A stretch of 64,000 bases of DNA, from the NCBI GenBank assembly GCA_049643885.1, contig JBARQV010000027.1, forward strand, positions 3,294 to 67,293, written 5' to 3'. Under the pieces are notes generated by a model. It had not been told where the DNA came from and made no database searches. It saw only the letters and a program-made list of their open reading frames with translations. Shown here piece after piece: positions 10,464-55,366 of the stretch; positions within the stretch are counted from its first letter, which is position 1, and each line of letters opens with the position of its first letter. The DNA is from Candidatus Omnitrophota bacterium. GTDB taxonomy: Bacteria > Omnitrophota > Gorgyraeia > Tantalellales > Tantalellaceae. The translations under genes and the position numbers were made by a program.

Positions 10464-10484
10464 TATTCCCTAACTAATAGTACA

Positions 10485-29167: not shown

Positions 29168-29187
29168 AAAACCGAAGGCGGGTAAAA

Positions 29188-29868: not shown

Positions 29869-30107
29869 ATATCCAGATATCCCCAAAAAAAGCACAATTA
29901 AAAGTTTAATTAGCTAGATAGCGCCAAAAATCCCTCCATTTTTAATTAACCCAAATTTAATCAAATTCAAATAATTACTTAACGTGCATGCTATATACTT
30001 GAAGTGTATGGCGAATACATATATATATGTGTATTCGCTTGAAATACGTTGAAATGTTAGGTAAACTAAAAGAGTGTAGCAAAAGACGCTCTTTCTTCTT
30101 TGAAAAT

Positions 30108-30235
30108 TCGCGAAAGGCAAACCCCGTGAAAGCGGGGGGCGCAAAGCTTGAGAGCCTAAAGCCGTTGGCTATGGCAGTCAGTTGCCGAATGGGAAAAATT
30201 AAAAACCCATAGCTTCTCAGGCTATGGGTTTTTTG
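30108..30235 (+). promoter_or_regulatory. c-di-GMP-I (GEMM) riboswitch-like leader, copy 1, with terminator expression platform
   Basis: AAAGGCAAACC; P2 hairpin CCCCGUG-AAA-GCGGGG carrying a GAAA tetraloop; GGCGCAAAGC; tetraloop receptor CCUAAAG...CUAUGG. The arrangement is close to the Vibrio Vc2 class-I aptamer. A terminator follows at 30205-30235 (ACCCAUAGC-UUCUCAG-GCUAUGGGU-U6). Confidence 0.8.
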
Positions 30236-30248: not shown

Positions 30249-33200
30249 ATGGTGAGGTTGGCAGAAATGAACAATAACAATTCTTTAAGAGTATGTATTA
30301 TTATCCTGGCAATGTTATTTGCCTGGACGAATTGTGTCTACTCTCTGCCGAAAGTCGACGAGGTCGTATCCGGCGAAGCAGAAGTAAAGATGGTCGATCC
30401 CAACACCATGCAGATCAATGCCACCGACAACACCATCATAAATTACCAATCATTTAACATCATGGAACACGAATCGGTTATCATCTCTCTCCCGAATTCA
30501 AGCAGCGAGATCCTTAACCGGGTGATAGGGCCTGACCGCAGCGACCTCTTTGGTAACCTGTCATGTAACGGGATATTTATCCTCGTGAACCAGAACGGGA
30601 TCTATGTGGGGCCGAACGCTAATATAGAAGCGGCAAGCGCGATCCTTTCGACAAGGGACATAACCGACTCCGATTTTATCGATGGGCAATATCTATTCCA
30701 GAAACTCTCCGATGAAGAGATGGACATGCTCCTCCTCAACGAGGGCACCATAAGGATCCAGGACGGCGGCTTCGGCGTCCTGATAGCCGGGGCGATAGAG
30801 AACAATGGTAAGATCATAGCCCCGTGCGGTAAGATAGTCCTGGCAGGGGGAGACGCCATAAAGCTTAACATGTCGGCGAATGGCCTGATCTCCGTCGCCA
30901 TCCTGGAGAAAACGGCTTCCAAAATATATGACCATGAAGGGAACCCCATACTTGACCAGATCAAGAATACCGGCGAACTTCGGGCGAACGGGGGCGCCGT
31001 TATTCTCAAGGCGGAAAGCGTAACCGATGTCTTTAGAAGCGCTATAAACCTGGAAGGGGTGGTCGAGGCCAACAGGGTAGAGGACAAAGACGGTGTTATA
31101 AGCATAGTGGCCGATAATGATGTAACGATAAACGCGGAAATGGCAGCAACTAGCATTGATATTAAGACTGAATATGATATTGACCTGGACGCTAATATCG
31201 TTGCTTCCGAAGGCGACATACTTCTTTTTGCCGATTATGACGGAGACGGGATCGGCAGCTTCAGGCAACACGGCGGCCTGATCGAGGCGACAGGTGAAGG
31301 GGATATTTATATCGAAGGCTCCGGGGAAATGGTCCTTGGGGCCGTCAAGACAGAGCTGGGTGCGATCAAGATAGGCACCCAAAGGGAGCCTTTTTCCATA
31401 ACGGGCGAACCTCATTATATCCATTCAAAGGGAGATTTTGAGATCACCGCGATGGATGAGGGCGAGGAGGTGACCACCCTCCATACCAGCCGGGGAGATG
31501 TCCTGAAATACAACACCACCGGCAAGGTGATCCTTGAGGCGGCGGACGGCAGGATCGAACAGCTGATCCAGGAGCCGTTGCCGGCGGGATATCTGGAACT
31601 GAAGGCCAGGACATTTGACGTTAATTCAGAAGCAGATGTTACAGTTATCAATGATATTGATAGTAATATTTATATTGAAAAGCTGATAGAGATCTCGGAA
31701 GATGTAGTTTCCCTGGAAGGCGAAACGACCGGCAGGGTCACGTATCTTATCTCGAATGATATTGTCCTCCAGACCCCTCATGACGTGGACACTGCCCCCG
31801 GGGTTATTATCCCGGGAGATAATGTCAAGATAACCGCCAGAAGAATAGGGTCAAACGACTCACCTGTGGGTATTTCTGCCAACCTCACCTATATCCATAG
31901 GATCCAGGGAGACATCGTCATCTCCGAGATCTGGGGTCTCGGGACAACAATATGCATCAGGGGTCCTGACCCGGATACGAACCCGGATAGCTGGGGAGCG
32001 ATTAATTTAAATAAAAATACAGACCTTATATTGGAGGCCTCTCAAGGAGGTCTTTTTATATCTGAAAATTGTGCTCTTCAAGCACAAAATCTCACATTAA
32101 TCGCAAGCCAGGGCATAGAAAATTACGGCTCTTTATTGGTCGAGAACGGAACCCTCACCCTTACGGCGGAAGGCGCCGTAATAAGCCTTGGCTCCTTAAG
32201 GGCCGAGACCCTTATAGAGGAGGGCGCCTCTTTTGTGGTCGGAGGAGAATATATAGTAGGCTACGCAACCGCCCGGAACGCAGATAACGCTGTAACACTT
32301 TATACGGGAAACTATTCAGGAGAAACCAGCGATACAGGCGACATTGCTGTCAAAAATAACAACATTATAACCCTGGTGGGAGACACTATATTCCGCGCTG
32401 ACAGCGACCAGAATGGGGTCGGGGGTTTTAAGCCTCAAGTTGGCTCCAGCATTGTAGGAGGGGGATATAATCTTTGGATATATGGTTCCGAGAGCTCAAC
32501 CCTTCGGCAGATAACAGGCGTCGGGACTCTTTCGCTATATAGATCCTACGCAAGCTCAAATCCCTATTATATTGATTATAGTGCCTGGAGCGTGGGGAAT
32601 TTGATCATTGGCGCAGGTATTTCGTTAGATATCCAAGGTGTGGGTTTAACATTAAGTGGAAATTTTACAAATAACGGCACATTTGTGTCAAATAACGCCG
32701 TCATATTCAGCGGCGCCGGTACGTCAAATATTACAGGAAATATCACATTTAACAATCTTACCTGTACTACCGCCGGCAAGATCCTGAAATTCAAAGAAGG
32801 CCAGACTTTTACCATAAACGGGACCCTTGCCCTGACAGGAACATCCGGCAATGAGATCGTTCTCGACAGCCAGAACGGTTCAACGCAATTTACGTTTAAA
32901 GTGGCCAGCGCCCAGAGCGTCAGCTACATAGTTGTCGCAAACTCTAATGTCGACGATACTTCAGGCGGCAATATAACCGCCTCTAACTCTTATAATGACG
33001 GCAATAACGATACCGGACCCACGGGACGTTACTGGGCAGGGCTTCCCGCGGCAACATATTCTGTTTACGGGGCAGTATATTCCGACCAGGGTTCTACGCT
33101 GATGGGCGCGGGTGTGAATATAGTTCTGGCGAGAAACGGAGTGGTCACGGCCAACACAAATACGCTTGCGAGCGGCCAGTACGCTTTTCACGGACGAGCT

Positions 33201-36200
33201 TTCTCAGCCAATGATGTGGTTTTGATCTACATAAACAATAGTACCACAAACGGTAATGTGGTAGTAATTGTAGATGCTGCCAGGATAACCGGGGCGGATA
33301 TATACGGGAACACTGCTATCGCCAGGCACCAGACGGCGGGACCCGTCACGAACGCGACATTTTCTACAGCTAAAGGCTCCATGACGGATACGGATATAAT
33401 CTATTCGGTGTCCGGTTCCAACTTGGAACTGAATGAGGGAGTGAGCTTTGTGGTATGGACAGGCGATACATATACTCCGGGTGGAAATCTTTATTGCAAC
33501 GATGTTGTCGTGCAGTCAAGCGCTATATTCAATGCCGCCGCGGGCTCTACAATAAGCGCCTCAGGCGATTGGGCGAACAGCGGCACGTTCAATCCCAGCA
33601 CATCGACCGTTATCCTTACCGGCGGAAGCGTGCAAACGCTGACTTCAGGGGGGTCTTCGTTCAACAACCTTACGATTGCGGGCGTAGGCACGTACAGGCT
33701 TCAGGATGCCCTGAATGTTACCGGCACCCTTGCTATATCAGGGTATTCCTACAAAAAAGCGATCGTTATAGATAATACAAAAGTAAACGCTGATCTGACG
33801 AATTTTCCGGTCCTTTTCAGCGTTACCGACAGCGATCTGGCGGTGACAGGCAGCGGCGGATATGTAACGAGTTCCAACGGTTGTGACATTATCTTTACCG
33901 ATCACGCCGGGGTCCAGCTGGACCATGAGGTCGAGTCATACAACCCGGCGACCGGACAGATCATCGCATGGGTGAAGGTGCCGAGCCTGTCAAATTCCAC
34001 AGACACGACGATCTACGTCCATTACGGTAACAGCGATATCATAACCTCGCAGGAGAACCCGACAGGCGTATGGAGCAACGGTTTTGCCGCGGTCTGGCAT
34101 CTTGGTTCATCCATAAATGATTCGACAAGCAACGGCATCACAGGCACAAATAACGGGACAACGGAAGAGACGACTATCGTAAAGGTGGGCACAAGCACTT
34201 ATTTTAACGGTTCAGAATCCGATTATATCAATTATGGCGAGCCGAGCGCGCTCGATATAAGTGGGAACAACCCGATCACCATCGAAACCTGGGTATACTT
34301 TAACTCGGTCGCTGCAAACTATCAGGATTTCTTCTCAAAAGGTGACACGCAATACCACTTACAGAAAAATAACGCAGATCCCGGGGTAATACAATTTGTT
34401 ATTTATGACGGAGACTGGCAGCTTGTCCAGGCGGACAGCAATGTTTCAACAGGAACCTGGTATCATGTTGTAGGGACATATAATGGAGTAAGCGGCGGGG
34501 CACTGGAGCTTTATATAAATGGCTCCAAGCAGACAGGCAGCGACACAGCTGCATCGATCAACAATACGGCTTATAGTGTCTATATGGGCGAGAACAGCCA
34601 GTCAACCGGCCGCTACCTGGACGGATATATGGACGAAGCCCGCATATGCAACGCCTACAGGACTGGTGGCTGGATACAGACCGAGCACAATAACCAATCC
34701 TCTCCTTCGACGTTTTATCCTAATTACACTTCGGAAGCACGGACCACCGGTGACAGTGCGACGCTTTGTCTGAATGGCAAGAACCTCTCTACCGCAACAC
34801 TCAATAATACCGGGACCCTGAGGCTCCTGGGGGCAGAAACGGTAAGCATAACCACGATGGATACAGATTCAGGACTGGTTGATTATTATGGAGACGGTTC
34901 ATATACGGGACTGGCGGCGGGGGACAGCTACTTCGACCTTACGTTTTCGGGGACCGGGGTCTATACCCTTGATGCCGATCTGGACATAAACGGTGATCTT
35001 TCCTTTACGCCTACATTCCAGTACAGGAAGGAAATAACCATTTACGCCTCACAGGTGGATGCGGACGTGACCGATTTTCCGGTCCTTTTCAGCGTTACCG
35101 ATGCTGACCTGATCGATAACCTGATGCACGACGCGAATTACACTATCAAGTTCACCAACGCGACCGGGACCGAGCTGCCATATGAAGTAGAGTATTACAA
35201 TAACGCAACAGGCCAGCTGATAGCATGGGTCAAGGCCGATTCATTATCCTCGAGCACCAATACAACGCTGTGGCTGTATTACGGCTCGCTGGAAGCCGAC
35301 TCCACGGAAGCAGCGACCAGCGTGTGGAGCAACAATTATTCGGCCGTGTGGCACATGAGTGAAGCGTCGGGGACTATCTATAATTCAACATCTTATCCCA
35401 ACAACGGGACCGCCGCCGGGGGCATTACTTACGGCGCAGCCGGAAAAATAGACGGATCTGTCAGCCTTGACGGCGTTGATGATCGGATAAACTGCGGGTG
35501 GGATCCAAGCCTGTCGCCCTCGAATGCGATCACCGTTTCCCTTTGGACGCAGAATGCCGTATCTCCGGCGCAATATGACGGCATCCTCGGCAAGACAAGC
35601 AGCTTTAAATGGGACGACGGGTACGGCATGTTTTACAACAGCTCAACCGAGGTCCGTTTTTATGTATCAAATTACAGCGCGAATGTCGCTTACGCGTCCT
35701 TGACGCCCACGAACATGAATTATATTGTCGGCACGTTTGACGGTTCGAATGTGCGGATATATGTAAATGGCGTAGAGGGCACGGCAGATCCGTATGCAGG
35801 CACCATATCATCAACGGCAGCCATGTTAGTGCTGGGCCAGTTATCGGGAACTGCATACAATATCAACGGCAAGCTGGATGAAGTCCGCGTTGCCGGCACA
35901 TGGCGTCCGTCCGGCTGGATCTCAACAGAATTCAAAAACCAGAATTCTCCCGGCACGTTTTTCGGCACCGGAAGCGAGATCAGCGGCGGCGCTACCATAA
36001 ACGCAGGAAGCTATGACATCAACAGTGCAGGCGATTTTGATCTTACAAGCGGCATATTTGATGCCGGTACGGGCACGGTTATATTTGACGGGGTATCCAC
36101 CCAGACCCTGACCACGGCCTCATATGATTTTTACGGTTTGACCGTCTCCAACGCCTCCTCAAACGGTGTTCAGCTTGCAGATGCCCTTACCGTTACGAAC

Positions 36201-39200
36201 GCTCTCACCATATCGACGAATGGCGTTTTTGATCTCCAGGATAATAATATGACGGCAACAGGAGCTGTCTTTTCGAACGACGGCACGCTCAGGCTCGTCG
36301 GATCGCAGGCGATAACGGGCCTTGTTATGGACACCGATTCGGGCACGGTGGAATATACCGGCGACGGTGATGCGACTCAGGAGACCTTTACGATCAAGGA
36401 TTTCGGCGCTATCGACTATTATCACCTTTTGATAAATGACACTAATGCCACGACCGCCAACCGGGACATTATTTCCGTAGGCGTGGGAACAAACCTGAAC
36501 GTCGACGGGGATCTTACAGTTTCCGGGGGAACGTTGAATATTAACGGGCAAAGCGTCAACATCGCCGGGAATTTCAGCGTGAGCGCGAGCCCGGACGCGA
36601 GATATCAGCAGGGCGGCGGCAGCGATAATACCTTCGATGGCAGCGGTAATGCCACCATTGATACCGGGGGAACAGATGACGACCACGATCTTACCCGCTT
36701 CATCGTGGACAAGTCCGGCGGAGCCGTTCTTACCGTGATAAACAATGGCGTGGATATAAATGAGAGCCTTACGATCACCAACGGTGTTCTTAGCTTGAAT
36801 GGCCAGAATATCACAACGACCACCACATTTTCAAATTCCGGAACCCTGCGTCTTCAGGGGAATGAGAGCGTGTCTTGGACCACGAACGACACTGATTCAG
36901 GCAAATGGGAGTATGTTGGTGATGGCGATTCCCTGGCGGACACATACACGATCAAGGATTTCGGGACCCCGGATTATTATAATCTGACCATCAATTCTAC
37001 TGACGGCGTGACCGACACATTCCAGCTCGGCGCCGCATTGGATGTTGACAGAAACCTCACCATTACTTCCGGCCGGCTGGATGCCAATAGCCAGAACATC
37101 AATCTTGCCGGCAACTGGATCAAAACCGGCGGGACCTTTGACAGCGGAACTAATACCGTTACATTTGACGGGGGGAGCGCGCAGACCATGAATTCCGGCG
37201 GCACGGATACAGGAAGCGATTTTAACAACATCACCGTATCCGGCTCAACGGTCCAGTTAATAGATAACGCGGTCGATATCGACGGCACTTTGACCATAAA
37301 TTCAGGCAAGGTCTTTGACCTTAACGGCCAGGACTTCACCCTCGCGACACTTGATAACAGCGGTACCTTGCAGCTCGAGGGGACGGAGACGGTCGCGATA
37401 ACCACGATGGATACCGACTCAGGAGAGGTTCTCTATACCGGATCGGGTTCTTATACAGGCCTTGCGGCGGGGGATAACTATTACGATCTTACATTTGCCG
37501 GGATCGGGAGTTATGCTCTGGATGCCGCTTTAGACGTAAACGGCTCTCTTGCAATATCAGGTTATTCCTATAAAAAAGCGATCGTATTGGAAAGCGACCA
37601 GGTAAGCGGCACTGCCGACCTGACGGATTTTCCCGTGCTATTTAGCGTTACGGATACCGATTTGAGGACAACGGGCAACGGTGGGCAGGTAACGGATCCC
37701 AACGGTTACGATATTATCTTTGTGGATTCCAACGGGGACCAGCTCGACCACGAGGTCGAAGCGTACAACGCCGCAACCGGGCAATTGATCGCGTGGGTAA
37801 AGGTTTCCGCGCTGGATTATAATGATGACACGACAATCTATATTTATTACGGCAACAGCAACATTACAAGTTCCCGGGAGAATGCTTCCGGCGTGTGGAG
37901 TAATTCTTACGCGGCTGTATATCACCTTGGCGAAGCCGGCACCGGAACGGCAGGCGATTACCAGGATTCCACTTCAAACAGTAATGATAGCGTGAGCACG
38001 AGCAACCAGCCTTCACAGACAACCGGCAAAATCGACGACTACGGCCAGTATTTTGACGGGTCTGAGGCGATACGCATTGCCGATGCTTCTTCGCTTGAGC
38101 CGACATCCATGACCATTTCATGCTGGTTCAAAAGAGACGGAGCCCAAAAGGACTGGACCAAGATCGTGCATAAGGGGCAGGGGAATAGCCCGTTCGGTTC
38201 TTATATACTGCAATTGAGCGCGGATGAGACGGAAGCAGAGTTCCAGGTAGCCAAGACGACCCCGGACTATGCAAAGGCAAGCAGCGGGACCGGGGCTGTC
38301 GCGGATGATACCTGGTACTATCTGGTAGGGACCTACGACGGGACCACCTACGACGGGATTTTATATATTAACTCCGCAAATATCGATAGTTTTAACGATA
38401 CCGCCCCTCTTTATTATGAAACCACCGGGCTTGGGATCGGAGGGCCCGGTTATAACGCTTATAATGATGCGGCAATCGGAGTTGTAGACGAAGTCAGGAT
38501 ATCGAGTGCCGTCCGCACCCAGGGCTGGATCACCACTGAATACAACAACCAGAATACTCCCTCAGCGCTTTATCCGACTTATACGTCAGGGAGCGGCCAG
38601 ACTGCCGGCAGTGCCGGAACGCTGGACGCAGCCGGATATAACATGAACATCGGCGGCAGCTGGACGAACTCAGGGACGTTCACGCACAACAATAATACGG
38701 TCATATTTGACGCGAACGATGCCGATAATACCATTACTTCCGGCGGCTCTTCCTTTAATAATGTCACGATCTCGAGCGGCACCTATGCCATGCAGGATGC
38801 CATGGTCATAGACGGCAATCTTACCACATGTCCCTGGGCGGATGAGTATTCTTACAGGAAGACGATAACAATAGAATCGGATTACGTCGACGCGGATGTG
38901 AGCGACTTCCCGATGCTCTTCAGTGTCACCGACACGGATTTGATAGACAACGTGATGAGCGGTTCGAACTACACGATCAAGTTCACCAATTCAACCGGGA
39001 CAGAGCTTCCTTATGAAGTTGAATACTACAATAACGGGACAGGCCAGCTTATCGCCTGGGTGAAGGCGGATTCCCTGTCAGGCAGCACCGATACGACCCT
39101 TTATCTTCACTACGGCTCGAGCGGCACTGCTTCTACGGAAAACCCGAGTGGAGTATGGAGCAATGGATATGAGGCGGTTTGGCATTTAACGGATGCGGCC

Positions 39201-42200
39201 GACTCGACCGGCGCGGGAAACGATCTCACCAACACCAACGTTACATTTGCCGGGGCCGATCCTAAGATAGGTGATTACGCGTTGTTTGATGGAGACGGTG
39301 ATCAATTAGAAGACGGAGACGGCGAGTCCTATATCAACGGATTGTCGGCAATAACCGTTTCCATGTGGGTCAATTCGGATATCACCGGAACCGACAGGGG
39401 ATTTTTTGATACCGAAGCGCCTGACGGGAATGATGACGTTACAAACCTAAGATATGATGACGCGGGCGCAAGCGGAGGAGCGGATGATTGCCTCAAAGTA
39501 AGCATTAACGCCACTACCGGTGAACAGCAGGCGTTGGAGAGTTCTGCGCTTAGCCAGACAACCAGCTGGCAGTATATCGTCCTTACATGGTCATCCGGGG
39601 TTGATGTTGCGCTATATCTGGACGGTTCGCCGGATACGCCTTCTTACTTGGAGGCTGGCGCTAGCAGCGGCACCTTGCAGAACGCCACTACCGTTTTAGT
39701 GGGTAAAGGCCCTAAAGACGGCGCGGCGCAGAGTTGGGACGGGCTGATCGATGAGGTGCGTGTTTCCAGCATAGCCCGGCCCTCCGGATGGATATCTACG
39801 GAACACAACAACCAGGACAACCCTTCGGCGTTTCACTCGACCGGGAGTGAGGGTTCGTCAGCTCCTGTTCTTGACTTGAGCGGGCAGAACCTCACCGTGA
39901 CCGGCACATTAGATAATTGCGGAACTATTAAGCTCGAGGGCGGCGAGACAGTGAACCTTACCATGGACACCGATTCAGGGCTGGTGGAATATTACGGAGC
40001 CGGCTCTTACGCAGGCCTTGTCGCCGGCGATGAGTATTATGATGTTAAGTTTTCCGGCAGCGGCAATTTTGACCTGGACGCGAACCTGCAAATAAACGGC
40101 GATCTTAATATCACGGGCTCCGTGACAGGGGACGCCGCGGGATATTCTTATTATAAAACAGTGACTATAAATTATAACTATGTAGACGATGATCTGACCA
40201 ACTTCCCGATGCTTTTTATTGTCGCCGACAGCGATCTGGCGACCGTAGTGAATGGCGGAAACGTGAACAGCTCGAGCGGCTACGATATAATCTTCACCGA
40301 CACAAGCGGAAATCAGCTTGACCACGAGATCGAGAAATATGATCCGGAGACAGGCGAAGTAGTGGCATGGGTCAGGATCCCCTCACTGTCCGGTTCAGTT
40401 AACACGGCCATTAATGTACATTATGGTAACGGTTCAGTGACCGCTTCCCAGGAAAATGTCAGCGGTGTTTGGGGAACTATCTATGACGGAGTTTGGCACC
40501 TGAATGACGACTTGCAGGATTCCTCGTCCACCGCCAATAACGGCACAAACAACGGATCAGCTGACGCGACCGGCAAGATAGCCGATGGGCAGTCTTTTAA
40601 CGACGCGGAGAGCGACTATATCGCGGTAGGGTCCGACCTTAGCCAGTGGCTGGGCAGCGACGGGTATGTATCCTTATGGATCAATACGACACAGACAGGC
40701 AATGATACGATGTGGCAGGCGCCCGGTGTGACCGGCGTGGAGCAATCAGGAGGCGCTAATGACATTTTCTACGGGTGGATAGATGCTTCCGGCCAGATAG
40801 GCGTCCAGGCAGGGAACACCGCCGGAGCGAAGAGCGCTGCAGACATAAATGACGGCGCGTGGCATTACATAGCCATGACGCGGAACGCGACTACAGGCGA
40901 AGTAAATATGTATGTAGATGACAACACGGTTGTTACGGCCACTTCGGAGACGGGGGCAAAAACAAATGCATTTTACAGTTTCGGGAGGATAGAGGACACA
41001 GGGGGCACCCCGGTCTATTTTAACGGCACGCTTGATGAGATCCGCGTTACGGATTCCATAAGACCGGCCGAGTGGATATCGACCGAATACAATAACCAGT
41101 TTTCCCCGGGAACGTTTTTCGGGACCGGAGGAGAGACAAGGAACGCCCCGGTCCTCAATGCCGGTAGCTATAACATCAATATAGCCGGCAATTACTCGCA
41201 GGACGAAGGGACTTTTGTCGCCCCGTCAAGCGTTCTCGGTCTTACAGGCAATTTCGACCTCACGGGAGGCACGTTCAACCACAACAGCGGCACTATCGCT
41301 TTCAACGCGACCGATACGGACAACACGCTCAACTTGAACGGCACCGCTTTCAATAACGTGAGGTTTGTTAACACTGCCACATATGCGCTGAACAGCGACC
41401 TCGATGTCGACGGCACGCTTACTTTCGCGCAGGAATCAGGATACGGAAAAGAAAAGACCATAACGATAGACCATGATCTGGTCGCGGAGGACCTGACCGA
41501 TTTTCCGATCCTTTTCAGCGTAACAGACGGCGACCTGGCCACGGTCGCCAACGGCGGTGACGTCGCTAACGCCAACGGCTACGACATCATATTCACCGAC
41601 GCGAACGGCACGCGGCTTGACCATGAGATAGAGAGCTACGATCCCGTTTCCGGCCAGATAGTCGCCTGGATAAAGGTTCCCGCGGTCTCTGCTGGCGCGG
41701 ACACGGTCATATACATGAAATACGGCAATGATGACATAACTACCTCCCAGGAGAACATCTCAGGTGTTTGGGACTCAAGTTTTGTAGGTGTGTGGCACAT
41801 GGATGAGACTTCCGGACTTGTATATGATTCTACATCCTACAATAATGACGGCACTGTATTTGCTTTTGCGCTCGGGGAAGTGAACAGGAGCGAGACCGGA
41901 AAGATAGACGGGGCCAATGATCTTGATCTTGCAAGCTATCCGAACGATCCCGCATATATTTTAATGACTGATTCCGGCAGCTTGGACATCACGGGAGAAC
42001 TCACGATATCGGCCTGGATAAATGCCGATGACCTTACGAACAGCAGGACGATCGTAGCGAAAGGTGCTTCGCTGACAAGCGTGAACTACGCTTTAAGCAC
42101 GAACGGCACGGAAGCTCAGTTCGGTTTCTATAACGGCGGAAATCGAACGTATGTTACCTCGAGTGCGGGGATTTCGACAGGCACCTGGTATTATGTTGCT

Positions 42201-44420
42201 GCCACGTACGATGACGCAGCGAACAGTGTGAAAGTTTATGTCAATGATACCAACAAGCTCGATACTTCTTCGACGTATTCACTGATAGCCGATAACGGCA
42301 ATTTGAATGTAAGCACTTATACATATGCTCCGGCTGGTGTATACGGTTTTAAGGGTTCGATAGATGAAGTTCGCATATCTAATACGGACAGGAGCGCCGG
42401 GTGGCTGGAGACAGAATTCAATAACCAGACAAGCCCCGCGATATTCCACAGCCAGGGAGGCGAAACGGTACCATTGACGACAATAGTTCTCAACAATAAC
42501 GATATCATTGCCGCGAGAGATTTTCACGGCAAAGGCGTTACGCTTTCCGGGGCAGGCGGCGTGGTATTGGATGGATCGAGCACTCAGAGTTTTGACCCGG
42601 GTTCGGTGAGTCTTTATAATCTGACGATCTCCAACAGCTCAACCAACGGCGTTCAGGTCAGCGACAGCCTGACGGTTACAAATGCATTGACAATATCTTC
42701 GAACGGCGTTCTCGACCTTCAGGACCAGGACCTTACTGCTACCGGCGCTTCTTTCTCCAATGACGGGACCCTTAGGCTTGTCGGAGGGCAGACGATAACC
42801 GGTCTTACAATGGATACCAATTCCGGGACAGTGGAATATTACGGGAATGGCTCCTACACCGGTCTTGCGGCGGGGAACAACTATTATAATCTTTATTTTT
42901 CCGGCGACGGTTCTTATGCGCTTACCGGAGACCTGGACGTGAATAACGATCTGACGTTCGCAAGCTACACATGGTACGATGCCAACTGGTTGAGCAGGAT
43001 AAAGATCACCGTTTCAAGCTCTCAGGTCGGTGAAAACCTGGCCGACTTCCCGGTTTACGTGGACCTTTCGGACCTGGGCTCGTCTTTCTTCAGCACCGTA
43101 AAAACAGATGGGTCTGACATACTTGTAACGGAAATTGATGGCACGACGGTTCTCAAGAGAGAAGTCGTTGACATAGACACGACCGGGGAGACAGGCGAGC
43201 TCTGGTTCAAAGCATCAAGCCTGAGCTCGTCAACAGACACGTCTTTCTATATCTATTACGGGAACTCAAACGCTTCCCTGGGCAATGATACGGATGTCTG
43301 GAGTAACAGCTATCTCAGCGCGTGGCATCTTGAAGACGCTAACTCCGACTCGACGCCGAACAACCATGATCTTACTGACAACAGTACTTCAAGTGTGGCA
43401 GGCAAGATCGGCGGCGGGCAGGACTTCACGGCCGGCGCGTATTTGGAAGATTCGAACGCTGAAATTTATATCAACGGCCTGAACGCGTTCACTTTGAGTT
43501 TGTGGGCCAATGCCGACGCGATAGGAAACGACCACGGCCTTGTAGTTTCAAAGACTCCGGATAATGCGGATGATGACGGGATCAACCTCAGGTATGACAG
43601 CGCGGGAAGCGACGGAAGCGGTACTAATCTTATCAAGGGGTCAGCAGGAACTTTCGGATGGCCCAGCAGTAATCCATTCAGGTACGAAAGTTCATCTGAC
43701 ACGCAGTCTGCCGACTGGCAATATCTTACTCTTGCATGGTCCAGTGGAAGTCAGATGGCGCTTTATGTGGATGGCGCGGCTGACACTCCAGATTATAACA
43801 GCACAGCCAGGACTACGACCATTACCGGTGCGACTACATTTATCATAGGAAAGGGCACCCAGGATACGACAGGCGGATGGGAAGGGCTTATTGACGAAGT
43901 GTGTTTATCCAACGTCGCCCGCTCCGCGGGATGGATATCCACCGAATACAATAACCAGAATTCCCCGTCTTCGTTCTACGCGACCGGCGGGAGTTCGAAT
44001 ATAAACATAAACACCCAGGGTTACAATATCACTGTTGGCGGAAGTTTCGAGAACCCGGAAAATGTCGGCTCTTTGAGCGGCTCGGGGACGGTGATATTTG
44101 ACGACGCGACTAAAGCATCGAACATCCTTGGCGACACGATCTTCTATAATTTTAGCTGCGCTACTGCCGGGAAACAACTCTTCTTTGAAGCAAGCTCGAC
44201 TACGACTATACAAGGCACGCTGACCCTTATCGGCGGGTCGGGAAACCCGATCATTTTAAGAAGCACCTCGCCGAACACGGCATGGAACATCGATCCGCAG
44301 GGGGCAAGAAGCGTTTCTTACGTTGACGTCCAGGATTCCACGAACCTTGACGTTACAGACATCATCGCCACAAGCTCCGCCGATTCCGGCCGCAACACCG
44401 GCTGGGCCATCACCCCGTAA
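30249..44420 (+). CDS. giant TpsA-family exoprotein (4723 aa): N-terminal TPS domain followed by seven [DUF2341 + LamG/concanavalin-like] modules and beta-helix-like spacers
   Basis: TPS-domain N-terminus (LPKVDEVVSGEAEV...NATDNTIINYQSFNI...LVNQNGIYVGPNANI). Recurring Y-S-Y-K-K-x-I-x-I...L-T-(N/D)-F-P-(V/M)-L-F-S-V...Y-(Y/H)-G-N module heads lie at nt ~33741, 35020, 37561, 38846, 40141, 41441 and 42970. Each is followed by a LamG-like domain ending ...L-D-E-V-R-(I/V)-S....G-W-I-x-T-E-(Y/H)-N-N-Q-x-S-P. Confidence 0.85.
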   Translation: MVRLAEMNNNNSLRVCIIILAMLFAWTNCVYSLPKVDEVVSGEAEVKMVDPNTMQINATDNTIINYQSFNIMEHESVIISLPNSSSEILNRVIGPDRSDLFGNLSCNGIFILVNQNGIYVGPNANIEAASAILSTRDITDSDFIDGQYLFQKLSDEEMDMLLLNEGTIRIQDGGFGVLIAGAIENNGKIIAPCGKIVLAGGDAIKLNMSANGLISVAILEKTASKIYDHEGNPILDQIKNTGELRANGGAVILKAESVTDVFRSAINLEGVVEANRVEDKDGVISIVADNDVTINAEMAATSIDIKTEYDIDLDANIVASEGDILLFADYDGDGIGSFRQHGGLIEATGEGDIYIEGSGEMVLGAVKTELGAIKIGTQREPFSITGEPHYIHSKGDFEITAMDEGEEVTTLHTSRGDVLKYNTTGKVILEAADGRIEQLIQEPLPAGYLELKARTFDVNSEADVTVINDIDSNIYIEKLIEISEDVVSLEGETTGRVTYLISNDIVLQTPHDVDTAPGVIIPGDNVKITARRIGSNDSPVGISANLTYIHRIQGDIVISEIWGLGTTICIRGPDPDTNPDSWGAINLNKNTDLILEASQGGLFISENCALQAQNLTLIASQGIENYGSLLVENGTLTLTAEGAVISLGSLRAETLIEEGASFVVGGEYIVGYATARNADNAVTLYTGNYSGETSDTGDIAVKNNNIITLVGDTIFRADSDQNGVGGFKPQVGSSIVGGGYNLWIYGSESSTLRQITGVGTLSLYRSYASSNPYYIDYSAWSVGNLIIGAGISLDIQGVGLTLSGNFTNNGTFVSNNAVIFSGAGTSNITGNITFNNLTCTTAGKILKFKEGQTFTINGTLALTGTSGNEIVLDSQNGSTQFTFKVASAQSVSYIVVANSNVDDTSGGNITASNSYNDGNNDTGPTGRYWAGLPAATYSVYGAVYSDQGSTLMGAGVNIVLARNGVVTANTNTLASGQYAFHGRAFSANDVVLIYINNSTTNGNVVVIVDAARITGADIYGNTAIARHQTAGPVTNATFSTAKGSMTDTDIIYSVSGSNLELNEGVSFVVWTGDTYTPGGNLYCNDVVVQSSAIFNAAAGSTISASGDWANSGTFNPSTSTVILTGGSVQTLTSGGSSFNNLTIAGVGTYRLQDALNVTGTLAISGYSYKKAIVIDNTKVNADLTNFPVLFSVTDSDLAVTGSGGYVTSSNGCDIIFTDHAGVQLDHEVESYNPATGQIIAWVKVPSLSNSTDTTIYVHYGNSDIITSQENPTGVWSNGFAAVWHLGSSINDSTSNGITGTNNGTTEETTIVKVGTSTYFNGSESDYINYGEPSALDISGNNPITIETWVYFNSVAANYQDFFSKGDTQYHLQKNNADPGVIQFVIYDGDWQLVQADSNVSTGTWYHVVGTYNGVSGGALELYINGSKQTGSDTAASINNTAYSVYMGENSQSTGRYLDGYMDEARICNAYRTGGWIQTEHNNQSSPSTFYPNYTSEARTTGDSATLCLNGKNLSTATLNNTGTLRLLGAETVSITTMDTDSGLVDYYGDGSYTGLAAGDSYFDLTFSGTGVYTLDADLDINGDLSFTPTFQYRKEITIYASQVDADVTDFPVLFSVTDADLIDNLMHDANYTIKFTNATGTELPYEVEYYNNATGQLIAWVKADSLSSSTNTTLWLYYGSLEADSTEAATSVWSNNYSAVWHMSEASGTIYNSTSYPNNGTAAGGITYGAAGKIDGSVSLDGVDDRINCGWDPSLSPSNAITVSLWTQNAVSPAQYDGILGKTSSFKWDDGYGMFYNSSTEVRFYVSNYSANVAYASLTPTNMNYIVGTFDGSNVRIYVNGVEGTADPYAGTISSTAAMLVLGQLSGTAYNINGKLDEVRVAGTWRPSGWISTEFKNQNSPGTFFGTGSEISGGATINAGSYDINSAGDFDLTSGIFDAGTGTVIFDGVSTQTLTTASYDFYGLTVSNASSNGVQLADALTVTNALTISTNGVFDLQDNNMTATGAVFSNDGTLRLVGSQAITGLVMDTDSGTVEYTGDGDATQETFTIKDFGAIDYYHLLINDTNATTANRDIISVGVGTNLNVDGDLTVSGGTLNINGQSVNIAGNFSVSASPDARYQQGGGSDNTFDGSGNATIDTGGTDDDHDLTRFIVDKSGGAVLTVINNGVDINESLTITNGVLSLNGQNITTTTTFSNSGTLRLQGNESVSWTTNDTDSGKWEYVGDGDSLADTYTIKDFGTPDYYNLTINSTDGVTDTFQLGAALDVDRNLTITSGRLDANSQNINLAGNWIKTGGTFDSGTNTVTFDGGSAQTMNSGGTDTGSDFNNITVSGSTVQLIDNAVDIDGTLTINSGKVFDLNGQDFTLATLDNSGTLQLEGTETVAITTMDTDSGEVLYTGSGSYTGLAAGDNYYDLTFAGIGSYALDAALDVNGSLAISGYSYKKAIVLESDQVSGTADLTDFPVLFSVTDTDLRTTGNGGQVTDPNGYDIIFVDSNGDQLDHEVEAYNAATGQLIAWVKVSALDYNDDTTIYIYYGNSNITSSRENASGVWSNSYAAVYHLGEAGTGTAGDYQDSTSNSNDSVSTSNQPSQTTGKIDDYGQYFDGSEAIRIADASSLEPTSMTISCWFKRDGAQKDWTKIVHKGQGNSPFGSYILQLSADETEAEFQVAKTTPDYAKASSGTGAVADDTWYYLVGTYDGTTYDGILYINSANIDSFNDTAPLYYETTGLGIGGPGYNAYNDAAIGVVDEVRISSAVRTQGWITTEYNNQNTPSALYPTYTSGSGQTAGSAGTLDAAGYNMNIGGSWTNSGTFTHNNNTVIFDANDADNTITSGGSSFNNVTISSGTYAMQDAMVIDGNLTTCPWADEYSYRKTITIESDYVDADVSDFPMLFSVTDTDLIDNVMSGSNYTIKFTNSTGTELPYEVEYYNNGTGQLIAWVKADSLSGSTDTTLYLHYGSSGTASTENPSGVWSNGYEAVWHLTDAADSTGAGNDLTNTNVTFAGADPKIGDYALFDGDGDQLEDGDGESYINGLSAITVSMWVNSDITGTDRGFFDTEAPDGNDDVTNLRYDDAGASGGADDCLKVSINATTGEQQALESSALSQTTSWQYIVLTWSSGVDVALYLDGSPDTPSYLEAGASSGTLQNATTVLVGKGPKDGAAQSWDGLIDEVRVSSIARPSGWISTEHNNQDNPSAFHSTGSEGSSAPVLDLSGQNLTVTGTLDNCGTIKLEGGETVNLTMDTDSGLVEYYGAGSYAGLVAGDEYYDVKFSGSGNFDLDANLQINGDLNITGSVTGDAAGYSYYKTVTINYNYVDDDLTNFPMLFIVADSDLATVVNGGNVNSSSGYDIIFTDTSGNQLDHEIEKYDPETGEVVAWVRIPSLSGSVNTAINVHYGNGSVTASQENVSGVWGTIYDGVWHLNDDLQDSSSTANNGTNNGSADATGKIADGQSFNDAESDYIAVGSDLSQWLGSDGYVSLWINTTQTGNDTMWQAPGVTGVEQSGGANDIFYGWIDASGQIGVQAGNTAGAKSAADINDGAWHYIAMTRNATTGEVNMYVDDNTVVTATSETGAKTNAFYSFGRIEDTGGTPVYFNGTLDEIRVTDSIRPAEWISTEYNNQFSPGTFFGTGGETRNAPVLNAGSYNINIAGNYSQDEGTFVAPSSVLGLTGNFDLTGGTFNHNSGTIAFNATDTDNTLNLNGTAFNNVRFVNTATYALNSDLDVDGTLTFAQESGYGKEKTITIDHDLVAEDLTDFPILFSVTDGDLATVANGGDVANANGYDIIFTDANGTRLDHEIESYDPVSGQIVAWIKVPAVSAGADTVIYMKYGNDDITTSQENISGVWDSSFVGVWHMDETSGLVYDSTSYNNDGTVFAFALGEVNRSETGKIDGANDLDLASYPNDPAYILMTDSGSLDITGELTISAWINADDLTNSRTIVAKGASLTSVNYALSTNGTEAQFGFYNGGNRTYVTSSAGISTGTWYYVAATYDDAANSVKVYVNDTNKLDTSSTYSLIADNGNLNVSTYTYAPAGVYGFKGSIDEVRISNTDRSAGWLETEFNNQTSPAIFHSQGGETVPLTTIVLNNNDIIAARDFHGKGVTLSGAGGVVLDGSSTQSFDPGSVSLYNLTISNSSTNGVQVSDSLTVTNALTISSNGVLDLQDQDLTATGASFSNDGTLRLVGGQTITGLTMDTNSGTVEYYGNGSYTGLAAGNNYYNLYFSGDGSYALTGDLDVNNDLTFASYTWYDANWLSRIKITVSSSQVGENLADFPVYVDLSDLGSSFFSTVKTDGSDILVTEIDGTTVLKREVVDIDTTGETGELWFKASSLSSSTDTSFYIYYGNSNASLGNDTDVWSNSYLSAWHLEDANSDSTPNNHDLTDNSTSSVAGKIGGGQDFTAGAYLEDSNAEIYINGLNAFTLSLWANADAIGNDHGLVVSKTPDNADDDGINLRYDSAGSDGSGTNLIKGSAGTFGWPSSNPFRYESSSDTQSADWQYLTLAWSSGSQMALYVDGAADTPDYNSTARTTTITGATTFIIGKGTQDTTGGWEGLIDEVCLSNVARSAGWISTEYNNQNSPSSFYATGGSSNININTQGYNITVGGSFENPENVGSLSGSGTVIFDDATKASNILGDTIFYNFSCATAGKQLFFEASSTTTIQGTLTLIGGSGNPIILRSTSPNTAWNIDPQGARSVSYVDVQDSTNLDVTDIIATSSADSGRNTGWAITP

Positions 44421-48688: not shown

Positions 48689-48967
48689 CGGAACCTCCTT
48701 TATTTGGCATGCCAAGCGAGACAGGGTTAAAGAAAATAAAGAGCAATTTTATATTGTTAATATATCACTTCTAAGCGGTTTTTGCAATGAGATTTACAAG
48801 AATGCCTTCGGGGCGAGAGACCCAGAAAGGTGTTCTGTGGGGGGGGCGAAGAAGAAAATGTTAAAAAAACAAAAGGCAGTAGAGGTTTTCTTATAATATT
48901 ACTTACCATGTGCTATACTTTAACTGGAGCTACATATACGCGTTCTTTGGGATATTTGTATAAGTAA

Positions 48968-49095
48968 CGATAAAGGCAAACCTTGCGAAAGCAGGGGACG
49001 CAAAGCTCAAGAGCCTAAAGCCGGGAGGCTATGGTAGTCAGTTGCCGAAACCGAGAATCCGTGACCCATAGTCTGTCCAGGCTATGGGTTTTTTA
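48968..49095 (+). promoter_or_regulatory. c-di-GMP-I (GEMM) riboswitch-like leader, copy 2, with terminator expression platform
   Basis: AAAGGCAAACC; P2 CCUUGCG-AAA-GCAGGG, which differs from copy 1 by compensatory changes (C-G to U-A, and U.G to C-G); GGACGCAAAGC; CCUAAAG...CUAUGG. Terminator ACCCAUAG-UCUGUCCAG-GCUAUGGGU-U6 at 49064-49095. Confidence 0.8.
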
Positions 49096-49120: not shown

Positions 49121-52100
49121 ATGAAAAGCAAAGCCGTAACGACAATCATATTCTCGGTATGTGCAATATTTTTTGCAGGGGTGGCGTGTGTCCATCCTCT
49201 TCCTGAGGTGGACGAAGTCGTTTCCGGCGAAGCCGAAATAAAAATAACCGACTCCCAGACAATGAACATCGATGCGGCAAATCATACGATCATCAATTAC
49301 ACATCGTTTAATATAAATGAAAATGAAAAAGTATACATCAACCTTCCTTCCAGGGACAGCGACATACTCAACAGGGTGACCGGGAAAACCCCAAGTTATA
49401 TTTTAGGCGATCTGTATTGCAACGGTGTCTGCATCCTCGTGAATGCGTCAGGGATCTATGTAGGACAGAACGCGAACATCGACGCGGCGGGTCTTGTTCT
49501 TTCAACTCGGGACATAACCGATTCAGATTTTATTTCCGGGAACTATGTGTTCAAAAAACTTTCCGATGAACAACTTGACATGCTTTTGTTGAACGAGGGA
49601 ACGATAAAGATCCATGACGGCGGTTTTGGTGTCTTGATCGCGGGCGCTGTTGAAAACAGGGGAACAATAATTTGTCCCGCGGGAAAGATCGTCCTGGCGG
49701 GAGGCGACGCGATAAAACTTGATATCGCGGGCAACGGATTAATTTCTGTCGCGATACTTGAAGAGACCGCGTCAAAAATCCTGGATTACGAAGGAAATCC
49801 GATAACGGACCAGATAAAAAATTCCGGGCGCCTGGAAGCGAATGGCGGAACAGTTATTTTAAAAGCGGAAAGTGTCACGGATATTTTTCAGTGCGCGATA
49901 AATCTTGAAGGCTTTGTCATGGCAAACAAAGTGGAAGAGAAAGACGGAAAGATCTGTTTGGTTGCTGATAGCGAAGTAAAACTTAACGCGGAAATGCAAG
50001 CGACACAAATCGAGATATCCGCGGGAAAAATTTCAGGCGCACCTGATCGTGTCCACGCAAAAGGTGATTATCTGAAAGTCGAAGCACCCGAAATAAACAT
50101 TCATTCAGAAGCTATAACAACTCATATTATTGACACCGACAGTGGCATAAATATTAAAGAACTTATTGAAATACCCGAAAGTAATTTAATTAAACTTATA
50201 GGCGAAGATACCGGAGAAGTAACATACATAAAAACACATAACATCACTTTAGAAACTCCCAGGGGCGATGTAAATACCGCGCCTGGCGTGGTCATACCCG
50301 GTAATGAGGTCAAAGTGTCCGCGCGGCGGATAGGCTCGCGCGACAATCCTGTTAATATTGATGCCAACCTCACCTATATTAACAGGATACAAGGCGACAT
50401 CATTGTCTCCGATATGTGGGGACTTGGGTCGACCATCTCTATCAGGGGTCCTGACCCGCACCCGGATAGTTGGGGCGCTGTTGTTTATAACGGCGGTTCT
50501 GACCTCGTTCTTGAAGCGGAAAATGTCGTTCTCTCGGGTAATGAACCTGTCCATTTATATGGAAATATTACCTTCCATAATCTCAGCTGTACCGTTCCGG
50601 GGAAAGAAATATATTTTGAAGCCGGGAAAACCTGCACCATATTGGGCGATCTGAAGATGCAGGGTGCCGATGCTCAGCACATTAAACTGCTCTCGTCCGA
50701 GGAAGGGAGTTACTGGTTTATAGACGCGCGCGGGGGCAGGGACCTTACCTATACCTGGGTCGAAGATTCCTATAATCTTGCCCCCGATGAGGTCATGATG
50801 ACGGAATCCACCAATAGGGGCGGGTGCTTCGGGTGGGATCCAACAGCCACCTGGACGGGGGCTGTGGATAACCTCTGGTCCGAGCCGGGCAACTGGATCG
50901 GTCTTGGCGGAGGGGTTATACCGGGAGCCGGGGATGATGTGGTGTTCGATGTTACCAGCAGCGCTGATTCTACCATAGACCAGGCCTTCACGATCGCTTC
51001 TTTAACGATAGATGCCGCGTATGGGGGGACCATAACACAGAGCGGTAATTTGGCCGTCTCGGGCGATTACGCGCAGTCCGGCGGGACGTTAAGCTGCACG
51101 GATCCGGCGGCACATTCTTTTACGGTCGGCGGGAGCTTCAATCTAACAGGCGGCGCGTTCAACCGCTTCACCGGGACAGGAACAAGCGGCGATCCGTTCT
51201 TAGTTAGGGATATATATGACCTTCAGGCGATAGACCTCCGTTTATACAGCTACTATAGCCTTAATAATAATGTTGATGCCGCCGTTACACAGAGTTGGAA
51301 TTCAGATGGCGCGGGTGGCTATTACGGGTTCAACCCGATAGGGAGCAGTTCCACCTGGTTCAGCGCCGTCTTCGACGGCCGGAACAACACGATATCGAAT
51401 CTTTACATTAACAGGCCTGCCGAGACCCATATCGGCCTGTTTGCCCGCACCCGCGGGGGCGGACAGGGGATACGTAACGTCGGGCTGGTCGGAGGCAGTG
51501 TCACCGGAGGCGACAGGACAGGAAGTCTTGTCGGTTACGTTGAGTATTCCGTAATAGAGAACTGTTATGCTACAACCGATGTGACAGGCACATACCGTAT
51601 GGTTGGAGGACTGGTCGGATCAGCCAGCGGTAATGGCAGGATCACCGGTTCATACGCGGAAGGAACTGTGGCGGGTGCCGGCAGCAATGTCGGGGGGCTG
51701 GTAGGGCAGGCCGGTAATAATTTTACCATCGAGAATTCTTACGCCACGGGTGCTGTAACGAATAGTTCATACAATACCGGTGGTCTGGTAGGTAATGTAA
51801 ATAACTGTACTATTACCGGCTCATATGCCACAGGTGATGTATCGAGCACAGGCAGCGGTGAAGCTACCGGCGGCTTGGTAGGTTATTTTATTTCAGGAAC
51901 CATCACTGATTGCTATGCCACTGGAAATATAATAAGTAATGCTAATCTGAGTGGTGGTCTGGTCGGTTACAGCCAGGGCACGATCAGCGGTTGTTATGCT
52001 ACCGGAGAAGTTACCGGTGCTATGAATGGCGGAGGCCTTGTCGGCGGTGTTTATCCGGGTGGTATTGTTGAGAACTCCTATGCTATGGGCGATATAATAT

Positions 52101-55100: not shown

Positions 55101-55366
55101 CGTCACCTCCAGCGCCGCAGCCGGGGATAGCAGCGAATGAGGATGAGATTAACAATGCCGTTTACGCGAGCGACAGGATTTTCGGTGATGTAAGGAATTC
55201 GATCCAACGGGAAGAAGTAGCACGCGCTGTCCAGATAACTGGGCGGGAATTGACGGTCATGAGCTGGGAGGCAGTGGATATGATCAATATCCCTCCGGGA
55301 GATATAGGAACCGGAATAGAACGCGCGTTCGCGATAGGGGAAGAAGTTTTCAGAGTGGTGCCATGA
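49121..55366 (+). CDS. TpsA-family exoprotein (2084 aa): TPS domain + GLUG-motif repeats + MBG/YDG-type repeats
   Basis: The N-terminal ~330 aa are paralogous to TpsA-1 (LPEVDEVVSGEAEI...). The middle has GGLVG-containing GLUG repeats (SYATGxV...GGLVG). After that come repeats of the form KPLTITA..KVYDG(T/V)T.A. The ATG at 49121 is preferred over the GTG at 49112. Confidence 0.85.
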   Translation: MKSKAVTTIIFSVCAIFFAGVACVHPLPEVDEVVSGEAEIKITDSQTMNIDAANHTIINYTSFNINENEKVYINLPSRDSDILNRVTGKTPSYILGDLYCNGVCILVNASGIYVGQNANIDAAGLVLSTRDITDSDFISGNYVFKKLSDEQLDMLLLNEGTIKIHDGGFGVLIAGAVENRGTIICPAGKIVLAGGDAIKLDIAGNGLISVAILEETASKILDYEGNPITDQIKNSGRLEANGGTVILKAESVTDIFQCAINLEGFVMANKVEEKDGKICLVADSEVKLNAEMQATQIEISAGKISGAPDRVHAKGDYLKVEAPEINIHSEAITTHIIDTDSGINIKELIEIPESNLIKLIGEDTGEVTYIKTHNITLETPRGDVNTAPGVVIPGNEVKVSARRIGSRDNPVNIDANLTYINRIQGDIIVSDMWGLGSTISIRGPDPHPDSWGAVVYNGGSDLVLEAENVVLSGNEPVHLYGNITFHNLSCTVPGKEIYFEAGKTCTILGDLKMQGADAQHIKLLSSEEGSYWFIDARGGRDLTYTWVEDSYNLAPDEVMMTESTNRGGCFGWDPTATWTGAVDNLWSEPGNWIGLGGGVIPGAGDDVVFDVTSSADSTIDQAFTIASLTIDAAYGGTITQSGNLAVSGDYAQSGGTLSCTDPAAHSFTVGGSFNLTGGAFNRFTGTGTSGDPFLVRDIYDLQAIDLRLYSYYSLNNNVDAAVTQSWNSDGAGGYYGFNPIGSSSTWFSAVFDGRNNTISNLYINRPAETHIGLFARTRGGGQGIRNVGLVGGSVTGGDRTGSLVGYVEYSVIENCYATTDVTGTYRMVGGLVGSASGNGRITGSYAEGTVAGAGSNVGGLVGQAGNNFTIENSYATGAVTNSSYNTGGLVGNVNNCTITGSYATGDVSSTGSGEATGGLVGYFISGTITDCYATGNIISNANLSGGLVGYSQGTISGCYATGEVTGAMNGGGLVGGVYPGGIVENSYAMGDIISTSVNVGGLIGYSWSATVSNCYSAGVPSGTFNVGGLIGSDSGGTYTANYWDTQTSGTTDGVGSVDPDPAGVTGKTTAEMKQQATFSGWDFSNTWIIDEGSSYPLLQWQLYIWDAGGDGTSWTDPLNWNRDSGYPDDADDRVLINTGSATIVTPFGASLTIGYLNLGSGFAGTLQIANALTLDNTGQWQGGMGIAAGTLQQNADIAISGDYAQSGGTFTCTTGDVTIGGTFTQSAGEFNAPAGNLYVKGDFSRTGGTFNHNSGTIIFDGTTGISGSSTNSFNNVTITGALTAPNANMNVAGDWTNSGTFNAGTGTVTFNGTASGKEITNGTGNSFNNVQFTGAGGEWTLQDDMGVTGQFKVTDGVFISGTNAVTLQGASATYLAADVNSANTDWTGGTLIILSDMDQTLPSSETYNNLQLGRDAGTGTTVYDILDTGSTINGTWTIDADARVLLAANATGVNKVYDDTTDAAVTLSDNRMAGWYDNFTTSYFSADFSDQNVGVGKAVSVNGISLSGSDAGKYQLSSTTASTTADITAKPLTITAQPNTKVYDDGVTAAAVPLVSGLEGNDTVTGLSEVYDTQHAGTGKTLSVDTYTVNDGNSGNNYSVSLVSDTTGEVTTRPITVTALTDTKVCDGTTSSAEVPVITVGSLAGDDTADWTQTFDTMKAGTDKVLTPSGTVNDGNGGLNYAVTFITDDTGVILPAAVSYLLFIDQPPAHEAAGAVITPAITVNAYDGYDNLCTNDSSTVIDMAIDNNPGGGILSGDTDKVLVNGVATFNDLSIDQKGVGYTLVTSSGAAQQDTSNSFNIGIAVWDGSESTAWNTPGNWDIGDTPPASYDVQIPVTPNDPVLSGPTTVDNLTINSGAQLSAGSNTLTVNGNWTNNGTFDAGASTVIFSGGGDAVISGSNTFNNLRSPAGAKQSLTFENGETQIIEGTLFLRGIGESDLLILQSGTPGQEWFIENPSDNNDMEFLDVRDSHNLGSLLIAPGSTLTDCIGWATAPPSPPAPQPGIAANEDEINNAVYASDRIFGDVRNSIQREEVARAVQITGRELTVMSWEAVDMINIPPGDIGTGIERAFAIGEEVFRVVP

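Follow-up and report, generated by a model that had tools for sequence, protein, structure and literature searches.

The window analysed here is a 64,000-nucleotide stretch of contig JBARQV010000027.1 from a Candidatus Omnitrophota bacterium. It contained two large genes for exoproteins of two-partner secretion (tpsA1 and tpsA2), one gene for the outer-membrane partner (tpsB) and, directly in front of each tpsA gene, a structured leader. The features to which the text refers were as follows, with positions counted from the first letter of the window.

30011..30038, no strand assigned: 28-nt palindrome, GCGAATACATATAT/ATATGTGTATTCGC, an inverted repeat with 14-nt arms that are 93% complementary
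30106..30189, + strand: c-di-GMP-I aptamer, copy 1 (RF01051, 75.2 bits, E=5.9e-13, model positions 1-87)
30167..30174, + strand: P1b 3' strand of copy 1, GGCUAUGG, one half of the tetraloop receptor and predicted alternative partner of the terminator 5' strand
30201..30234, + strand: intrinsic terminator of copy 1, a hairpin of -16.0 kcal/mol followed by UUUUUU
30267..44420, + strand: tpsA1, an ORF of 4723 aa with a TPS domain, seven Laminin_G_3 and seven DUF2341 domains (Pfam TPS E=2e-23, Laminin_G_3 E=5e-90, DUF2341 E=6e-64)
44435-48715, - strand: ORF of 1426 aa with the Pfam domains Peptidase_C39 and pre-toxin PT-TG and an apolipoprotein-like helical region
48965..49049, + strand: c-di-GMP-I aptamer, copy 2 (RF01051, 79.8 bits, E=4.5e-14, full model)
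49026..49039, + strand: P1b 3' strand of copy 2, AGGCUAUGGUAGUC, predicted antiterminator partner of the terminator 5' strand
49063..49094, + strand: intrinsic terminator of copy 2, found by terminator scan (12 pairs, -17.0 kcal/mol)
49121..55366, + strand: tpsA2, an ORF of 2084 aa with a TPS domain and GLUG and YDG repeats (Pfam TPS E=1e-25, Glug E=4e-27, YDG E=2e-21)
55367..57067, - strand: tpsB, the outer-membrane partner, with POTRA_2 and ShlB domains (Pfam ShlB E=9e-32, POTRA_2 E=2e-17)

The assignment to two-partner secretion was based on PF05860, present in both large ORFs, and on PF03865 and PF08479 in the ORF at 55367-57067. The likely start codon of tpsA1 was the ATG at 30267, which was preceded by GGUGAGG and followed by a signal-peptide-like N-terminus, and the mechanical ORF start at 30249 was considered less likely. 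Similarly, the ATG at 49121 was followed by a signal-peptide-like N-terminus and was preferred for tpsA2 over the mechanical start at 49112. Two tpsA genes were accompanied by a single tpsB gene, which was convergent with tpsA2 and abutted its stop codon. The 1426-aa ORF between both tpsA genes faced tpsA1 in convergent orientation, pointed away from the tpsA2 leader and may encode a polymorphic-toxin-like protein. The flanking genes were the housekeeping genes carB, purF and icd and a gene for an OmpR-type response regulator. The best relatives of the PurF protein (up to 83% identity) and nearly all TPS relatives that bore a name were labelled Candidatus Omnitrophota. In ENA, the TpsB protein was found on the metagenome scaffold ZINK19-1_SAMN08473120 scaffold_28.

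The palindrome predicted upstream of copy 1 was real and longer than described originally. Its arms (30011-30024 and 30025-30038) preceded aptamer 1 by about 68 nt, and the OmpR-type regulator gene (29149-29868) ended 240 nt upstream. Pairwise alignment of the two upstream regions gave no counterpart of the palindrome region in front of copy 2, and the search with the arm GCGAATACA returned 21 matches with at most one mismatch against 13.9 expected, with no sign of a regulon. The palindrome may serve as an operator, or it may form a hairpin where the leader begins; together with the OmpR-type regulator it could add a second level of control that is specific to tpsA1. An element common to both upstream regions, CATG(n)CTATA(TA)CTT (29989-29999 and 48911-48919), resembled a -10 promoter element of the extended type (TGnTATACT). 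Transcription of copy 1 from this element would place the palindrome at the leader's 5' end.

The Rfam scan of the whole window gave exactly two matches above gathering score, both of them to RF01051 (c-di-GMP-I) on the + strand and both in front of the tpsA genes. The scores of 75.2 and 79.8 bits, with the gathering threshold at 35, established the family membership proposed for both leaders. The two leaders had been placed at 30108-30235 and 48968-49095; both were real, but the aptamers started at 30106 and 48965, which was 2-3 bases earlier. The tpsB gene carried no riboswitch in the same scan, and the leaders would thus control the cargo proteins but not their transporter. A covariance model built from the two window aptamers scored 108.9 bits for copy 1 and 110.6 bits for copy 2. 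The same model gave a weak match at 10411-10471 on the minus strand (21.5 bits), which consisted of a GNRA hairpin alone, had no Rfam match and was treated as chance.

Reading of both leaders showed the expected elements of the class. Both copies carried GGCAAACC, followed by the P1a hairpin (termed P2 in the original prediction) with its GAAA cap: CCCCGU-GAAA-GCGGGG at 30122-30137 in copy 1, with the tetraloop at 30128-30131, and CCUUGC-GAAA-GCAGGG in copy 2. The tetraloop receptor CCUAAAG...UAUGG was found within P1b (formerly P3) in both copies. P1 was short: it had 5 pairs in copy 1, whereas copy 2 had just the two canonical pairs CG:CG. The motif GGACGCAAAGC had been claimed for both leaders and was present in copy 2, but the sequence of copy 1 is GGGCGCAAAGC, in which position 30139 is G and the consensus has A. 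The differences between the two P1a hairpins had been described as compensatory. All three kept the pairing, but only one was two-sided (C:G to U:A); the remaining two were one-sided and involved a G:U wobble (C:G to U:G, and U:G to C:G).

The ligand contacts were located through alignment columns 11, 38 and 81, which correspond to G20, A47 and C92 in Vc2 numbering; the same mapping (G11/A38/C81) was given for Bc1 (PMC11218506), and the ligand contacts of G20 and C92 have been described (PMC5888326). The equivalents were G 30116, A 30143 and C 30185 in copy 1, and G 48975, A 49002 and C 49045 in copy 2. Since G, A and C occupied the contact positions in both window copies, sensing of c-di-GMP was predicted for both. 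Copy 2 had the canonical GAC bulge in P1a, and the G at 30139 of copy 1 replaced the Rfam-conserved A of this bulge (A43, Vc2 numbering). Assignment of copy 1 to the Rfam variant 'c-di-GMP-I-GGC', read as A47G, was ruled out because the changed base was A43. The numbering equals alignment column + 9, which puts A47 at the first A of GC-AAA-GC, a position occupied by A in 47/47 sequences.

Metagenome contigs were scanned with an alignment of the TPS domain, and 80 loci were obtained. According to our own covariance model, an aptamer lay upstream of the TPS ORF, on the coding strand and 15-300 nt from the TPS match, in about 55 of the 80 loci, and in 51 of the 57 closest loci (42% identity or more). 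The 25 loci without an aptamer remained negative with the filters off; they were mostly more distant homologues, plus L003, L009 and L017. A scan of genome contigs with the TpsA1 N-terminus gave one locus, L001 (Alphaproteobacteria MAG, 54% identity), which was without a riboswitch. On contig Ga0180432_10001600, two TPS genes (L009 and L012) were located about 10 kb apart with a riboswitch only at L012, which was also the closest match to the window copies (104.8 bits). When 20 relatives were re-tested against Rfam, all 20 were confirmed, 18 as RF01051 and two (L056 and L023) as the clan member RF03167 (c-di-GMP-I-GGC, gathering 59), which was the best match for L056:936-1031 (67.2 bits) and L023:739-833 (60.8 bits).

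Among 47 distinct leaders, the consensus structure was paired in 98.5% of the alignment cells, and two-sided changes were found in 15 of the 20 pairs. None of 500 shuffles reached the observed values, and sliding the partners by 1-3 columns left only 23-44% of the cells paired; the alignment was fitted to the model and thereby favoured the structure, but the margin was very large. The C of the P1a bulge and the G of the AG bulge were invariant across all 47 relatives. At bulge position A43, G was found in 25 leaders, A in 21 and U in 1, with the flanking G and C invariant.

The original prediction also placed a strong intrinsic terminator after each aptamer, and this was borne out by hairpins of -16 and -17 kcal/mol with U-runs. 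In copy 1 the hairpin was AAAAACCCAUAGC-UUCUCAG-GCUAUGGGUUUUU (30201-30233), with the 5' strand CCCAUAGC at 30206-30213, the 3' strand GCUAUGGG at 30221-30228 and the U-run at 30229-30234. In the terminator scan this hairpin was listed under the minus strand, an effect of the A-run and the U-run, which lengthen the stem. In copy 2 the hairpin GACCCAUAGUCUGUCCAGGCUAUGGGUU occupied 49063-49090, with the 5' strand at 49063-49074, the 3' strand at 49079-49090 and the U-run at 49089-49094. Aptamer and terminator were separated by 13-14 nt in both copies without overlap, so that both folds can coexist, and the predicted minimum-energy fold of copy 1 was aptamer and terminator together.

The proposed complementarity between the terminator and the receptor was likewise present, with CCCAUAGC (30206-30213) facing GCUAUGG (30168-30174). 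The terminator 5' strands, CCCAUAGCU in copy 1 and CCCAUAGUCU in copy 2, were complementary to the P1b 3' strand, the target being GGCUAUGG in copy 1 and AGGCUAUGG plus GUC in copy 2. The strength of this pairing was evaluated by folding energies, computed for RNA free of tertiary contacts and of ligand. The antiterminator duplex of copy 2 (-15.3 kcal/mol) beat all 48 swapped aptamers and all 50 shuffles. In the nascent RNA of copy 2, before the terminator 3' strand, the minimum-energy fold was the antiterminator, 9.9 kcal/mol below the aptamer fold, and the pair probability of P1b dropped to 0.00 when the terminator 5' strand and loop were transcribed. The extended alternative duplex of copy 2 also joined the terminator 3' strand to the P1b 5' strand, up to the U-run, and could itself promote some termination. 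The antiterminator duplex of copy 1 comprised 8 pairs (-12.0 kcal/mol); it was matched by 0 of 50 shuffles and equalled or beaten by 10 of 48 swapped aptamers, a rank of 10th in that control. In the nascent RNA of copy 1 the enforced antiterminator was 4.0 kcal/mol more stable than the enforced aptamer, but in the unconstrained ensemble P1a and P1b were retained after the terminator 5' strand was added (0.60 to 0.67), which suggested that copy 1 may terminate by default. P1 was also considered as the switching helix of the window copies and was rejected, as it had 5 and 2 pairs only and the platform held no conserved segment complementary to it; L035 is an example of the relatives that do use P1.

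A terminator within 130 nt of the aptamer was found in 41 of the 47 related leaders. In these 41 leaders, the terminator 5' strand paired with its own aptamer with a mean energy of -11.5 kcal/mol, compared with -8.3 kcal/mol for shuffled strands (Wilcoxon p=2e-7) and -10.3 kcal/mol for swapped aptamers (p=0.0016). The mean aptamer pair probability was 0.62 before the terminator 5' strand, dropped to 0.43 on addition of this strand plus the loop and came to 0.57 for the full leader; shuffling of the added segment likewise gave 0.57 (p between 1e-9 and 1e-6). As the leaders are related by descent, all these p-values overstate independence, and the reuse of different helices appeared to be the stronger argument. 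The P1b receptor strand was targeted in the window copies and in their nearest relatives L012, L002 and L029. P1a was targeted in many relatives, in which CCCAUUCUUUC faced GAAAGGAUGGG (the P1a 3' strand and tetraloop), and the P1b 5' strand in L070, L022 and L028. In L037, L057 and L073, matching changes were found on both sides of the terminator-aptamer pairing.

Relatives without such a terminator showed different designs. An extended P1 of 7-10 pairs (e.g. AUCUCUU/AAGAGAU), followed directly by UUUUUU, was found in L035:1033-1155, L036, L019, L038, L048 and L047, and here the closing helix of the aptamer looks like the stem of the terminator. The tpsA start codon of L035 and L038 was 15 nt after the aptamer, and the P1 3' strand may double as ribosome-binding site. 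In L005:1076-1145, L034:889-958 and L006:1020-1146, the tpsA start codon lay 1-2 nt past the aptamer 3' end. The same three loci had a tandem arrangement, with a second, partial or weaker aptamer match upstream (L005:991-1059, L034:804-872, L006:398-493). Among the leaders with separate terminators, two serial ones, 25-40 nt apart, were observed in L010, L011, L014, L004, L021, L032, L028 and L043, with CCCAU...AUGGG-type stems in both terminators in most of these loci. All the platform designs of the relatives would repress expression when the aptamer is stabilised.

The family match, the binding-site bases and the covariation show that both leaders belong to class I (GEMM-I, type 1). Together with the terminators and the conserved complementarity, they lead us to infer that both leaders bind c-di-GMP and probably control transcription termination, being OFF at high c-di-GMP. 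In the proposed mechanism, RNA polymerase would transcribe the aptamer before the platform. With c-di-GMP bound, the P1a/P1b fold would be locked by the ligand and the tetraloop-receptor contact, and the terminator 5' strand would be left with the terminator's own 3' strand as its sole partner. The terminator hairpin would then form ahead of the U-run, and transcription would end before tpsA. In the ligand-free leader, the terminator 5' strand (CCCAUAGYY) would invade P1b and pair with the receptor strand GGCUAUGG; the antiterminator would be formed, and the polymerase would read into tpsA. High c-di-GMP would in this way lead to less of both TpsA exoproteins.

The layout was compared with characterised members of the class. 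Cd1 of Clostridioides difficile is a c-di-GMP-I transcriptional OFF switch in which the aptamer and the terminator coexist and compete with an antiterminator (PMC9262584). Cd1 and the window leaders are alike in the separate terminator after the aptamer, in the coexistence of the two folds and, clearly for copy 2 but less so for copy 1, in a predicted antiterminator that would compete in the ligand-free state; this likeness concerns the arrangement of folds. The switching strand of the window leaders would pair with the P1b receptor strand, and that of many relatives with P1a. The linker of the window leaders is much shorter (13-14 nt), and the regulated genes encode TpsA exoproteins, whereas Cd1 controls a flagellar operon. 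With Vc2 of Vibrio cholerae, the window aptamers share the full covariance-model match, the P1a GAAA tetraloop, the P1b CCUAA.../UAUGG receptor and the equivalents of G20/A47/C92. They differ from Vc2 in having terminators, while Vc2 is thought to act on translation, and also in the short P1, the G in the GAC bulge of copy 1 and the host, Candidatus Omnitrophota. The Cd1-type architecture together with the conserved complementarity favoured the OFF polarity. OFF at high c-di-GMP had been put forward originally as the simplest reading; it fits the comparative evidence (the 41 related leaders, the Cd1 layout and the other platforms) and is, in silico, the best-supported and a fairly probable polarity, with clear support in copy 2 and less in copy 1.

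It is also conceivable, but unlikely, that the aptamers are real and that termination in one or both leaders depends little on the ligand, the leaders being locked-OFF attenuators that would be relieved only via another factor, such as a palindrome-bound protein or the neighbouring response regulator. The unconstrained folds of copy 1, which consisted of the aptamer helices and the terminator, and its antiterminator of only 8 pairs are consistent with such an arrangement, as are the 28-nt palindrome and the OmpR-type regulator gene just upstream of this copy. A precedent is Bc1 of Bacillus thuringiensis, whose long platform has a dual terminator and which was reported to be locked OFF in vivo irrespective of c-di-GMP (PMC11218506). 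Bc1 shares with the window leaders the c-di-GMP-I aptamer and terminators downstream, and several relatives also have two terminators in series; the window copies themselves differ from it by a single terminator and a short platform. Bc1 cautions that termination might be the default in leaders like copy 1 as well. Against locked termination stand the strong and specific antiterminator of copy 2, the clear purifying selection on the aptamer core and the terminator-aptamer complementarity, which is conserved family-wide and would not persist if unused.

The opposite polarity, in which the ligand would block termination and raise TpsA, would agree better with the physiological expectation. c-di-GMP usually promotes adhesion, and an OFF switch in front of presumed adhesins runs counter to this. 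The CdrA/CdrB system of Pseudomonas aeruginosa resembles the loci studied here in that a two-partner-secretion exoprotein is under c-di-GMP control; the TpsA adhesin CdrA is induced by c-di-GMP through transcriptional, protein-mediated control, which is positive, while the Omnitrophota leaders are RNA switches predicted to act negatively. Bc2, a c-di-GMP-I riboswitch located before a collagen adhesin, works as an ON switch. In copy 1, moreover, the linker AUGGG (30189-30193) could pair with the CCCAU of the terminator, but this candidate antiterminator of an ON logic was rejected as it is missing from copy 2. In ON switches such as pilM the aptamer and the terminator must be mutually exclusive (PMC9262584), whereas in the window leaders they do not overlap, and the ligand-bound aptamer cannot sequester the terminator. 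As the OFF logic also recurred in all four platform types of the relatives, ON switching was considered quite improbable.

The ligand itself may vary among the relatives. The binding-site triplet was G/A/C in 32 of the 47 leaders, and A was found at position 20 (column 11) in 14 (L015, L008, L052, L070, L022, L019, L040, L016, L045, L050, L062, L025, L027 and L031). A at position 20 is typical of 3',3'-cGAMP-responsive GEMM-I variants (PMC9481103), which suggests that some Omnitrophota tpsA paralogues may respond to this other dinucleotide. That the window aptamers, too, recognise another cyclic dinucleotide, for instance 3',3'-cGAMP, as these 14 leaders and the G in the bulge of copy 1 might indicate, is very improbable, because both copies have the c-di-GMP pattern of G at 20 and C at 92 and the bulge varies freely between A and G (21 and 25 leaders) with its invariant neighbours kept.

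The riboswitch class, which commonly controls surface proteins, and the platform type are already known, and the window copies add members with a lineage-specific gene association. As class and mechanism are textbook, the understanding of riboswitches is left unchanged, and the value of the finding lies in the biology of the host. In the searchable literature, no paper was found that links a c-di-GMP-I riboswitch to two-partner secretion genes or to Omnitrophota; the near-universal association of aptamer and TpsA in Omnitrophota and the mixture of G20 and A20 among the leaders appear undescribed there. The roughly 50 related leaders constitute a natural experiment in platform design, in which one aptamer is wired to terminators via different helices and the binding sites seem to fall into a c-di-GMP type and a cGAMP type.

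For Omnitrophota, an uncultivated phylum, the leaders provide a direct and testable regulatory handle on giant secreted proteins, which our results suggest are made at low c-di-GMP. A wider reading, which we hold tentatively and with doubt slightly outweighing belief, is that the TpsA family across Candidatus Omnitrophota forms a cyclic-dinucleotide riboswitch regulon. Most close homologues would then be controlled by GEMM-I aptamers with OFF logic in at least four designs (antiterminator against P1b, antiterminator against P1a, P1 used as the terminator or as a stem that sequesters the SD, and a start codon placed right next to the aptamer), and the G20A change in about 30% of them would predict cGAMP as the ligand. 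If this is true, two dinucleotide signals would be used on paralogous genes, and low levels of cyclic dinucleotides would be the specific condition under which these little-known nanobacteria, which may depend on hosts, bring out their giant surface or attack proteins.
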